DNA of 64,000 nucleotides from IMG/VR virus record IMGVR_UViG_3300035208_001055, positions 56,494 through 120,493 of that record, one strand, 5' to 3'. Source of the stretch: a virus (Duplodnaviria; Heunggongvirae; Uroviricota; Caudoviricetes). The position numbers and the translations under genes were made by a program. The first letter of the stretch is position 1, and each line of letters starts with the position of its first letter. The notes under the pieces were generated by a model, which was given only the letters and a program-made list of their open reading frames with translations, was not told the DNA's origin and did not search any database. Positions 4,160 to 5,171 of the stretch are shown one piece after another.

Positions 4160-4293
4160 GGGAAAGTTCTCCGTGGGAAAGGTTAGGCTAAGTTGGCCCA
4201 AAATTACACTCGCAATAAAAGCATCTGGGCAAGGTGTGCGAATGGGTATTGCAAGTATGAAATTGATAACCCATTTGCCTCGGCCCGGCGCTT

Positions 4294-4602
4294 TTACGCA
4301 CTTGTCTCCTCGTCTGTTTCTTTGTCTGAGAGGCGTGGCAACACGCCCACGTCCTCACCGGTGACAACAATCGTCACCAATTCATCCGACCCAGCAAAGC
4401 GTCCGGTAGGACGAATTAGGATCGAATAACCACTGTTGATGACGCGCCCGACAAATATCGGCGCATCCCATAGTCGAAAGGACGCACTGAACGTCTCACC
4501 ATTCGATAGGCACTTGTGGCACAGGTCCACGGTCTCGGTGTTGGCGTCTAGGACGACATCCGTAAGCATTCCTCGATCATGGCAATAGGTTACGTCCATC
4601 AT
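4294..4602 (-). CDS. Hypothetical small protein (CxxC...CxxC)
   Basis: 102-aa ORF between the Y-RNA-like array and rsr; contains CHDRG...CHKC. Confidence 0.25.
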   Translation of the reverse strand: MMDVTYCHDRGMLTDVVLDANTETVDLCHKCLSNGETFSASFRLWDAPIFVGRVINSGYSILIRPTGRFAGSDELVTIVVTGEDVGVLPRLSDKETDEETSA

Positions 4603-4713
4603 TGTTCTCCGTGGCCTTCGATTATATCACTCAGTTGTGGGGAGTCGAGCAAGGTCGTATTGCTGGGGTTTCGTGATAGTGGTAGATAACCCAACAAAAT
4701 TCGGCTCGACCAG

Positions 4714-4832
4714 TGTGTGGGGTAGGACTTGAACCTACTCTCGGCGGTTGCCGACATCATAGTCGGAAACCTTCCGAACCCCGTGGTGTTTCACGGCGGC
4801 GGCGGCGCGTCTTCCGGTTCCGCCACCCACAC
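4714..4832 (-). ncRNA. tRNA-like structured RNA (candidate Y RNA / YrlA-like tRNA-mimic module)
   Basis: Minus strand: perfect 7-bp acceptor pairing GUGUGGG/CCCACAC, a D-arm-like GCG-GAACCGGAAGA-CGC, a canonical T-arm GUAGG-UUCAAGU-CCUAC, and discriminator A. About 119 nt, with two internal hairpins where the anticodon arm would be. Too long for a tRNA; no CCA. Confidence 0.4.
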
Positions 4833-5035
4833 ATACGATGAGGCAAGGTTGTGTCGATGGGTATTACTTTAACCAGATAACCCATGACTTCGGCCTCATG
4901 TTTTCTCATGTTCTCTCATTGTACTCACCGGGCAAGGGATGTCGAACGGAGGGTCTTCCAAATAGATAACCGTTCAACGTCGGCCCGTGTGTTCTCTCTT
5001 GGTTCTCTCGTGGTTTCTCTTGTTTCGTTTCAAGG

Positions 5036-5171
5036 CACGCCGATAGGACTCGAACCTACAACCTCAAGTTCCTATGATAACCCAAATCCTTCGACCCGAT
5101 GTGCTTTACAAGGGGTAAGTTTTTGGCTTGGGTGATGCTACTCGCGCTCTAGCCAATTGAGCTACGGCGTA
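5036..5171 (-). ncRNA. tRNA-like structured RNA with embedded Y-RNA-like motif (candidate YrlA-like Y RNA)
   Basis: Minus strand: acceptor UACGCCG/CGGCGUG, UA, canonical D-arm GCUC-AAUUGGCUA-GAGC and T-arm GUAGG-UUCGAGU-CCUAU. About 86 nt replaces the anticodon/variable region and includes GGGUCGAAGGAUUUGGGUUAUCAUAGGAACU. Confidence 0.4.

Follow-up and report, generated by a model that had tools for sequence, protein, structure and literature searches.

The locus described here raises the question of what is encoded by five short repeats that precede the gene for an orthologue of the RNA-binding protein Ro60 in the genome of a virus assigned to Caudoviricetes (IMG/VR record IMGVR_UViG_3300035208_001055). 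The window, meaning the whole stretch of 64,000 nucleotides (nt) that was analysed, covers positions 56,494 to 120,493 of that record, and a preliminary description had reported five copies of a motif resembling the 5' end of Y RNAs within it. Inspection of the sequence located all five copies on the minus strand, with the common form GGYCGA…GGUUAUC and a span from 5097 to 4265. Their 3' ends had been placed exactly, whereas their 5' ends had been set 0–5 nt too far upstream, so that the copies run as follows.

5097-5076, minus strand: motif of unit 1, GGGUCGAAGGAUUUGGGUUAUC
4986-4965, minus strand: motif of unit 2
4895-4876, minus strand: motif of unit 3
4711-4685, minus strand: motif of unit 4
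4286-4265, minus strand: motif of unit 5

The heptamer GGTTATC occurs five times on the minus strand inside 820 nt. The joint pattern GATAACC-N8-16-TCGR gave five matches in the window as compared with 0.46 expected, and none of 100 shuffled sequences reached five; four of the five matches fall in the array, unit 3 with its 7-nt spacer lying outside the pattern. The motif is clustered far above chance.

The key context, which the preliminary description had overlooked, is the gene that follows the array.

2513-4159, minus strand: Ro60/Rsr orthologue, 548 amino acids (aa) from the ATG at 4159; protein with which all five modules are predicted to partner

Its product matched vWA_Ro60 (1.6e-66) and TROVE (5.4e-42) in Pfam and the RNA-binding protein family PHROG 850 (5e-82), and among the solved structures in PDB it matched human RO60 (8e-121), Xenopus Ro60 (2.5e-117) and Deinococcus radiodurans Rsr (9e-109). 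The array ends 62 nt ahead of the Ro60 start on the same strand, within the limit of about 4 kb from a Ro60/TROVE gene that is applied to Y RNAs; closeness to a Ro60 gene on the same strand is indeed the genomic criterion by which bacterial and phage Y RNAs are defined (PMC4201824). This gene, together with bulged-C helices in the units, sub-threshold Rfam matches of four units (RF01656) and covariation in about 130 related copies, supported the Y RNA reading, and we consider it very probable that the minus-strand interval 5172-4221 is a cluster of five Y RNAs serving the phage's own Ro60. Since Y RNAs beside Ro60 have been known in phages since 2014, that reading is in itself ordinary. Also overlooked was the tRNA-shaped RNA into which unit 1 is built, and in which the helix strands stand in reversed order. 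Read 5' to 3' on the minus strand, the array comprises this RNA (tY1), a purine-rich spacer, the stand-alone units Y2 and Y3, a tRNA-like element, Y4, a small open reading frame (ORF102), Y5 and then Ro60.

The four stand-alone units are given below, each with its z-score against shuffled sequences, its score with R1, a covariance model built from Y2-Y5, and its score in a permissive Rfam scan with RF01656, the family of nematode stem-bulge RNAs (sbRNAs).

4926-4991, minus strand: Y2 (unit 2), stem-loop; lower stem CGGGC (4987-4983)/GCCCG (4933-4929), bulged C4982, G4981-A4980 opposite U4934-U4935, upper stem GAACGG/CCGUUC, then UUAUC; minimum free energy (MFE) -27.0 kcal/mol, z = -3.89; R1 70.1 bits; RF01656 31.8 bits
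4838-4899, minus strand: Y3 (unit 3), stem-loop; lower stem AUGAGGC (4899-4893)/GCCUCAU (4844-4838), bulged C4892, GA/UU, AUGGGU/ACCCAU, then UUAUC; z = -3.68; R1 77.9 bits; RF01656 21.8 bits
4644-4711, minus strand: Y4 (unit 4), stem-loop; lower stem GGUCGAGC (4711-4704)/GCUCGAC (4650-4644), bulged C4703, GA/UU, UUGGG/CCCAG, then UUAUC; z = -3.57; R1 69.4 bits; RF01656 23.1 bits
4227-4286, minus strand: Y5 (unit 5), stem-loop; lower stem GGGC (4286-4283)/GCCC (4230-4227) with an outer extension to 4292-4221, bulged C4282, GA/UU, AUGGGU/ACCCAU, then UUAUC; z = -2.30; R1 74.3 bits; RF01656 30.2 bits

As is evident from these entries, Y2-Y5 are bulged stem-loops of 60-70 nt (z from -2.3 to -3.9) that share one fold, namely a lower stem of 4-8 base pairs (bp), a bulged C, G-A opposite U-U, an asymmetric internal loop, an upper stem of 5-6 bp, an invariant UUAUC and an apical loop of 13-17 nt. 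The pairings that had been proposed for the unit at 4900-4876 (AUGAGGC with GCCUCAU and AUGGGU with ACCCAU) coincided with its predicted MFE fold. Y5 follows the ORF102 stop immediately, and about 62 nt separate its end from the Ro60 start. The bulged-C helix was found in all five units, and the combination of motif and bulged C that marks a bacterial or phage Y RNA was taken to be present. The blocks GCCGA, GGUUAUC and CCUUGC are invariant in Y2-Y5, and thus both strands of the Ro60-binding helix are recognisable, as they are in the Y RNAs of D. radiodurans and metazoans and not in the YrlA of Salmonella or Mycobacterium smegmatis (PMC4201824). The Ro60 of the window is itself far nearer to the human and Xenopus proteins (E ~1e-120) than to that of Thermus phage phiLo, the only structurally characterised phage Ro60, which it matched with an E value of only 5e-8; its closeness to the metazoan proteins fits the metazoan-like two-strand conservation of its Y RNA helices.

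Close relatives of the locus were sought in three collections. In INPHARED, the best that blastn returned was about 70% identity, limited to the 3' end of the Ro60 gene; IMG/VR had no exact match to a 43-mer of tY1; and a scan of JGI metagenomes yielded no Ro60 nearer than 61%, on a contig that lacks the upstream region. The best Ro60 identities across the three collections were 59-61%, and covariation was therefore assessed at the level of the family instead of orthologue by orthologue for each unit. Over the 64-kb window, R1 detected nothing besides Y2-Y5 at E <= 1. Two sets of loci were then fetched, set 1 of 57 IMG/VR viral contigs through the Ro60 protein, and set 2 of 80 JGI metagenome loci through the Ro60 protein alone. 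Set 1 contained 68 further copies and set 2 contained 61 at E <= 0.01. All 129 lie on the Ro60 strand, mostly no more than about 1.4 kb upstream of the gene, and in set 1 nearly every copy keeps to this distance. Among the stand-alone units of set 1, 91% of the alignment cells were paired, compensatory cells numbered 282 as against 90 in shuffles, and the covariation score was 0.67 as against at most 0.12 when the partners were slid by 1-3 columns. The compensatory changes for which the preliminary description had proposed a search were thus found in the relatives, the helices covarying strongly and passing the shuffle and slide controls. Compensatory change, which is expected of a bacterial or phage Y RNA, was observed in the stand-alone units and in the tRNA-order units described below. 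In addition, many of the conserved pairs are G-U, indicating that the structure sits on the sense RNA strand and not on DNA or the antisense strand. Arrays of 4-7 units were present in other contigs (e.g. L022, L008 and L298), and the five copies seen here are hence not exceptional. As judged from sequence, the units of the array have the genomic and structural characters of bacterial and phage Y RNAs (PMC4201824).

Unit 1 differs from the other four in being built into a larger RNA, whose delineation is based on its sequence, on covariation in its family and on R2, a covariance model made from a MAFFT alignment of 32 viral members of that family.

5035-5172, minus strand: tY1, a Y RNA chimera in tRNA order
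5171-5165/5042-5036, minus strand: acceptor stem of tY1, 7 bp, open, extended by G-1 (5172):C73 (5035)
5162-5146, minus strand: D arm, GCUC-AAUUGGCUA-GAGC, with U8 and A9 before it and G26 after it
5144-5140/5069-5065, minus strand: 'anticodon' stem, CGAGU/ACUUG, 5 bp
5076-5133, minus strand: predicted Ro60-binding module, in permuted order and in place of the anticodon loop
5133-5128 and 5119-5113, minus strand: first strand of the module, of the 3' type, ACCCAA and CUU-ACCC
5112-5098, minus strand: closing loop of the module, 15 nt
5097-5076, minus strand: last strand of the module, of the 5' type, GGGU (5097-5094), bulged C5093, GAAGGAUU, UUGGGU (5085-5080) and UAUC (5079-5076)
5059-5043, minus strand: T arm, GUAGG-UUCGAGU-CCUAU, preceded by the variable loop AGGUU

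The D loop of tY1 contains GG, no CCA is encoded and the tail reads CUUG. Its stem CGAGU/ACUUG encloses a 70-nt segment (5139-5070) that holds the Y helix, and there is no 7-nt anticodon loop. R2 scored tY1 at 90.7 bits (E = 5e-22), above all the ordinary tRNAs searched; other full-length chimeras scored 62-120 bits, as compared with at most 61.6 bits for ordinary tRNAs in viral Ro60 loci. ARAGORN made no call on tY1, nor was it passed by the Rfam tRNA model in the scans of the window, whereas several of its relatives pass that model. With its D and T arms joined to the Ro-binding helix through a 5-bp stem, tY1 shows the trait of the YrlA subfamily. It does not fit the permuted definition of YrlA, however, in that the D arm precedes the T arm, the acceptor strands are outermost and the Ro helix ends in a closing loop of 15 nt; the 32 aligned relatives share this arrangement. 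The -1:73 pair was also considered as an identity mark of tRNA-His. This assignment was not adopted because the pair covaries (G:C, U:A, A:U and C:G), for which reason an 8-bp stem is the safer reading and a His identity is speculative.

To find further chimeras, a pattern combining the 3' strand of the D arm, GGTTATC and the T loop was searched with no pairing demanded. It matched 95 stretches in IMG/VR and at least 120 in species-representative genomes. Among the matches listed, 75 bacterial candidates had at least 6 of the 7 acceptor pairs, and a Ro60 gene lay within the fetched 8 kb in 59 of these, in every case on the strand of the chimera and usually 60-800 nt downstream of it; the hosts among these listed matches included cyanobacteria, Myxococcota, Gemmatimonadota, Armatimonadota and Chloroflexota, and CCA was encoded after the acceptor stem in 17 of the 75 as against a rough chance expectation of about 3%. 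Several viral copies likewise encode CCA there. In set 2, which had been selected by protein, 52 full-length chimeras occurred in 37 of the 80 loci, all on the Ro60 strand. Altogether, the architecture of tY1 was present in more than 140 copies from phages and at least five bacterial phyla, with nearly invariant D-arm and T-loop nucleotides.

The structure was upheld in an alignment that had been fitted to none. RNAalifold applied to the plain MAFFT alignment of the 32 viral members recovered the acceptor stem (8 bp including -1:73), the D and T stems and part of the lower Y stem, and the column pairs derived from the Y helix of tY1 hold in 21-31 of the 32 sequences. In 88 distinct bacterial copies, 94.7% of the cells were paired, compensatory cells numbered 485 as compared with 137 in shuffles, and the covariation score was 0.58 as compared with at most 0.15 when slid; the -1:73 pair, on which no selection had been made, was present in 71 of the 88, mainly as G:C (41) or U:A (22).

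Two types of chimera were distinguished. Type A, to which tY1 belongs, has an uninterrupted anticodon stem with the Y helix in place of its loop. Most chimeras are of type B, in which the Y helix branches off the 5' strand of the anticodon stem and a 7-nt N-U-NNN-A-A loop is kept. This loop directly follows UUAUC, and its 1-3 closing bp make up the rest of a split 5-bp anticodon stem (L002, L005, L048, L056, L102, L119, L130 and others), and the 'anticodons' vary widely (UGU, GCA, CAU, AUU, UGA, UCU and others). The type B hairpin may be the counterpart of the 'V' arm in the YrlA of Chen et al. (2014) or a genuine mimic of an anticodon arm.

Tandem arrays of 2-4 copies are common. Such arrays were seen upstream of Ro60 in L153, L220, L222, L230, L236, L217 and L249, from cyanobacteria and other phyla, several with an encoded (N)CCA, and the sequence across the junction of two tandem copies would look like a canonical YrlA whose acceptor stem is long. 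In L003, a canonical YrlA has the same modules in permuted order; calls of 'canonical order' were made by regular expression and checked by eye for L003 only, and some may represent neighbouring tandem elements. At about 5700-5930 of L003, the 3' Ro-helix strand of the YrlA, CCGCCCCACAUC, can pair either with the upstream 5' strand (GUGGGGCGG) or with GAUGUGG of the next unit, so that two alternative pairing registers link neighbouring units. ARAGORN made no call on any chimera, and Rfam reported only tRNA on eight related loci, where a few chimeras passed as tRNAs with a large insertion; neither Y form is therefore covered by a curated family. Among cultured actinophages, Sixama (Gordonia phage, L352) and FuzzBuster (Microbacterium phage, L354) have unannotated gaps of 350-400 nt just upstream of genes annotated as 'Ro-like RNA binding protein', and the Ro gene of Sixama adjoins a cluster of 13 tRNAs. 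R1 and R2 gave weak or no matches in the unannotated gaps upstream of Ro in Sixama, Beuffert and FuzzBuster, the gap of FuzzBuster matching both models weakly, and nothing is therefore said by these phages on the tRNA-order form.

Besides the five units, the array holds the following elements.

4714-4832, minus strand: tRNA-like element, 119 nt; 7-bp acceptor stem GUGUGGG/CCCACAC, T arm GUAGG-UUCAAGU-CCUAC, A73
4294-4602, minus strand: ORF102, 102 aa, between Y4 and Y5, with a GGAG ribosome-binding site
4621-4648, minus strand: promoter-like site with an extended -10, TCGACT-16-TGATATAAT, preceding ORF102 and not above chance

The tRNA-like element lies flush between Y3 and Y4. It has two extra hairpins at the anticodon/variable region (one with a 6-nt loop and an additional one of 37 nt) and no Y helix; it scored 32.4 bits with the Rfam tRNA model, whose gathering score is 29, had an MFE z-score of -4.40 and was not called by ARAGORN. 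It was also tried as a divergent tY chimera and rejected, its R2 score of 25.1 bits being below those of ordinary tRNAs. With low confidence, its sequence suggests that it may provide a signal for RNase P and the 3'-end maturation enzymes. ORF102 had no match in Pfam or PHROG and is probably a real but unrelated small gene in a variable slot. In L001, the closest relative, whose Ro60 is 59% identical, the order is an open reading frame, a tY chimera that has the G-1:C73 pair, a tRNA-like element directly adjoining a Y unit, a small open reading frame, a Y unit and Ro60. The tRNA-like element there is 77 nt long and occupies the same position as 4714-4832; the small open reading frame (121 aa) is non-homologous to ORF102 and occupies the same slot; and the Y unit directly upstream of Ro60 is orthologous to Y5. 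The conservation of this layout argues that the order and the tRNA-like 'punctuation' are functional.

The motif GGYCGA…GGUUAUC forms the 5' strand of the predicted Ro60-binding helix and pairs there with a 3' strand of the …ACCCAU…CUUGCC type. The motifs, the covarying helices, the Ro60 gene with its linkage in strand and position, and the widely distributed tRNA-order topology are thus observed. On the analogy of the family, the transcription, processing, Ro60 binding, effector and biological role of the cluster may be envisaged as follows. The cluster would be transcribed with or ahead of Ro60 and cut into single RNAs. The two tRNA-shaped elements would assist in this, with their 5' ends generated by RNase P and their 3' ends by tRNA 3'-end maturation enzymes and CCA addition. 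Each RNA would dock on the outside of the Ro60 ring, in the manner of the Xenopus complex whose structure is solved; the small units might gate or occupy Ro60, and tY1 might tether it to a factor that recognises the tRNA shape (a tRNA-processing, repair or decay enzyme) or to the host PNPase, with the outcome that RNA surveillance or decay would be redirected during infection.

Several observations weigh against the interpretation as a Y RNA cluster. The published motif GNCGAAN0-1G is exact in only two of the five units (GUCGAAG in unit 1 and GCCGAAG in unit 3); it is one base off in unit 2 (GCCGACG) and unit 5 (GCCGAGG), and unit 4, GCCGAAUU, lacks the final G. The likeness to vertebrate Y RNAs pointed out in the preliminary description stood for the features of the helix and the motif, but the Rfam family of vertebrate Y_RNA (RF00019) gave no match at E <= 10 in the permissive scan of the window, and the matches of four units to RF01656 (21.8-31.8 bits) are under the gathering score of 38. 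sbRNAs count as homologues of Y RNAs. An effector-binding domain is not evident in Y2-Y5, and promoter and terminator scans of the array stayed at chance level. In tY1, whose docking on Ro60 is a prediction, the end of the Ro helix that normally bears the RNA termini is closed by a loop. Furthermore, the covariance alignments were fitted to the models, by which the pair counts are somewhat inflated, a concern that is reduced by the unfitted MAFFT alignment and the slide controls.

The array might alternatively be read as a set of cis-acting Ro60 sites in one long polycistronic mRNA or leader, where Ro60 would bind its own transcript and so autoregulate translation or stability, especially via Y5, or as a multivalent scaffold on which several Ro60 rings assemble. 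Terminators and above-chance promoters are indeed lacking between the units, Y5 stands in the 5' leader of Ro60, an open reading frame is embedded in the array, and the phiLo Ro60 forms higher-order ribonucleoproteins, its Yrl1 carrying two CGAA hairpins (PMC12135203). We nevertheless regard this reading as unlikely: two tRNA-shaped elements with intact acceptor and T arms lie exactly at unit borders, the CCA that relatives encode after the acceptor stem makes sense only for released RNAs, and the upstream Y RNAs of M. smegmatis are processed from one precursor (PMC4201824). As a precursor could do both, cis-acting sites are in any case compatible with a cluster of Y RNAs. Much less probable is that tY1 and 4714-4832 are decaying or insertion-disrupted tRNA genes linked to the Y motif by accident in a tRNA-rich region. 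That phage Ro60 genes often adjoin tRNA clusters, and that the Rfam tRNA model passes 4714-4832 and several tY1 relatives, would accord with such decay, but more than 140 copies exist whose acceptor, T and Y stems covary and whose D-arm and T-loop nucleotides are nearly invariant, and every insertion consists of this one Ro-binding helix, in an element that without exception stands on the Ro60 strand. Pseudogenes would not be expected to retain 95% of the pairing, and for tY1 the covariation contradicts decay. For 4714-4832 alone, where no family was detected, decay is a possible reading.

The least probable proposal takes the motif as a DNA-level repeat, an operator, iteron or other site of a DNA-binding protein, and not as RNA. 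Five short conserved boxes in a non-coding stretch ahead of a gene would suit it; against this, the motif occupied a single strand in all of the about 130 related occurrences, every box has a distant covarying complementary partner, the conserved G-U pairs would be C-A mismatches on the opposite strand, and the sequence conserved between the boxes suits an RNA helix rather than a palindrome. A DNA repeat devoid of RNA pairing partners, the outcome that the preliminary description had named as fatal to its claim, is thereby excluded. The Y RNA cluster is the preferred explanation of the locus.

The surroundings of the array form a phage replication and nucleotide-metabolism module with an ATP-dependent DNA ligase-like gene, a 5' nucleotidase and a family A DNA polymerase (Pfam and PHROG), at a GC content of about 51%. 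Four ordinary tRNAs were called by ARAGORN at 14.0-15.0 kb of the window, and the Rfam scan of the window at gathering scores returned four ordinary tRNAs only. The ligase-like gene (1061-2167, minus strand) lies two genes downstream of Ro60. Bacterial Ro60 loci are often linked to RNA ligases; since Pfam and PHROG both point to a DNA ligase here, the association with Ro60 may be coincidental. GAGAAC occurs seven times on the minus strand within 1.1 kb (4079-5180), six copies standing just 5' of tY1, Y2 (two copies), Y3, ORF102 and Ro60 and the seventh (4079-4084) inside the Ro60 coding region. The hexamer is not enriched over the window (44 as compared with 37.5 expected), and it could be ribosome-binding-site context or a processing motif. 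Elsewhere, the minus-strand interval 24972-25056 has a T arm (CCGGG-UUCGAGU-CCCGG) and an 8-bp acceptor-like helix followed by UUUUU; it matched a tRNA-frame model weakly (25.9 bits), had no ARAGORN or Rfam call, and could be a tRNA-like minihelix or a terminator.

As phage Y RNAs beside Ro60 were to be expected, the locus itself adds a well-resolved five-member example from a lineage without a close relative in the searched collections. Its main added value is tY1, a natural, abundant and unpermuted form with an open acceptor stem and sometimes an encoded CCA, which makes the origin of tRNA-like Y RNAs and the purpose of their tRNA mimicry testable, and which flags a gene class that tRNA finders and Rfam now miss or mislabel. 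A bolder proposal, which we put forward tentatively and hold to be rather doubtful, is that tRNA-order Y RNAs constitute a distinct and previously unrecognised major class of Ro60 partners whose maturation follows that of tRNAs (RNase P cleavage, a free CCA end and, at -1:73, an eighth pair that is G:C in about half as in tRNA-His), that they are aminoacylated or recognised by tRNA-repair or decay enzymes or anticodon nucleases, and that YrlA arose as the junction-spanning unit of tandem chimeras. If this were true, Ro60 would be coupled directly to the tRNA world, and the 'dimeric tRNA' origin of YrlA proposed by Sim and Wolin would gain a concrete route.

Among the known systems, the nearest are the YrlA-type Y RNAs, which Chen et al. 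(2014, PMC4201824) recorded next to the Ro60 gene of 254 bacteria and 22 phages, and whose structure was given by Wang et al. (2018, 10.1101/312249). YrlA has its T arm ahead of its D arm, a closed hairpin as acceptor and its termini in the Ro helix, and it 'lacks a free CCA end' (10.1101/312249); the Wolin laboratory terms it a circularly permuted tRNA (10.1101/312249), a description repeated in reviews and methods papers of 2023-2024. tY1 resembles the YrlA of Salmonella Typhimurium, M. smegmatis and mycobacteriophages in its location on the Ro60 strand, at most a few kb from that gene, in joining a GNCGAA Ro60-binding helix via an anticodon-like stem to a tRNA body (D, T and acceptor-like parts), and in having the nucleotides for tRNA tertiary contacts, which in tY1 are U8, A14, G18-G19, A15:U48 and the T loop UUCGAGU. 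Unlike YrlA, tY1 and its relatives have the normal tRNA order, an open acceptor stem of 7-8 bp and a loop-closed Ro helix; to go by their sequences, the tY1 form and YrlA are exact circular permutations of each other. In M. smegmatis, a single precursor from upstream of rsr yields both YrlA and YrlB by processing (PMC4201824), and the RNase P-cut, CCA-tailed YrlA (Chen et al., 2014) shares with tY1 the combination of an open acceptor end and a Ro-binding helix, which for tY1 is predicted. That product is a pair of fragments (82 and 65 nt) joined by base pairing, which come from a permuted precursor cut in the acceptor loop, whereas tY1 would be a single chain without an internal cut.

With vertebrate Y RNAs and sbRNAs (RF00019 and RF01656), the units share a bulged-C helix with a GGYCGA 5' strand and a CUUG 3' strand, an upper stem followed by UUAUC, and, as predicted here, Ro60 as partner. 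Vertebrate Y RNAs are 84-112 nt long. Y2-Y5 are shorter at 60-70 nt, have an apical loop of 13-17 nt only, show neither RNA polymerase III features nor a 3' oligo-U, and are arrayed beside a protein gene. The Ro60 of phiLo binds two upstream Y-like RNAs and the host PNPase in vitro (PMC12135203, 2025). Its Yrl1 and Yrl2 resemble the present units in being phage-encoded, CGAA-bearing bulged hairpins directly upstream of a phage Ro60, and they differ in that the Ro60 is distant (E = 5e-8), that two RNAs are present instead of five, and that no tRNA-shaped member was reported there (PMC12135203). The b7a-tRNA (Burroughs and Aravind, 2016), as described in the citing paper (10.1101/312249), is a tRNA-like RNA with a Band-7 protein partner that is tied to RNA-repair loci and occasionally stands beside Rsr; that brief description, on which the comparison is based, mentions no Ro60-binding helix, and an overlap of b7a-tRNA with the tRNA-order chimeras is possible on its terms. 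No published description of the tRNA-order form was found in literature coverage that was incomplete, the original account of b7a-tRNA, the supplements of the YrlA survey and Sim et al. (2020) lying outside it. Finally, few YrlAs were found in cyanobacteria and deltaproteobacteria, and those there had 'longer acceptor stems' (Chen et al., 2014, PMC4201824). The tRNA-order form would explain this scarcity, and we infer that the longer acceptor stems of the cyanobacterial RNAs represent tandem tRNA-order chimeras seen through a model of the permuted form.

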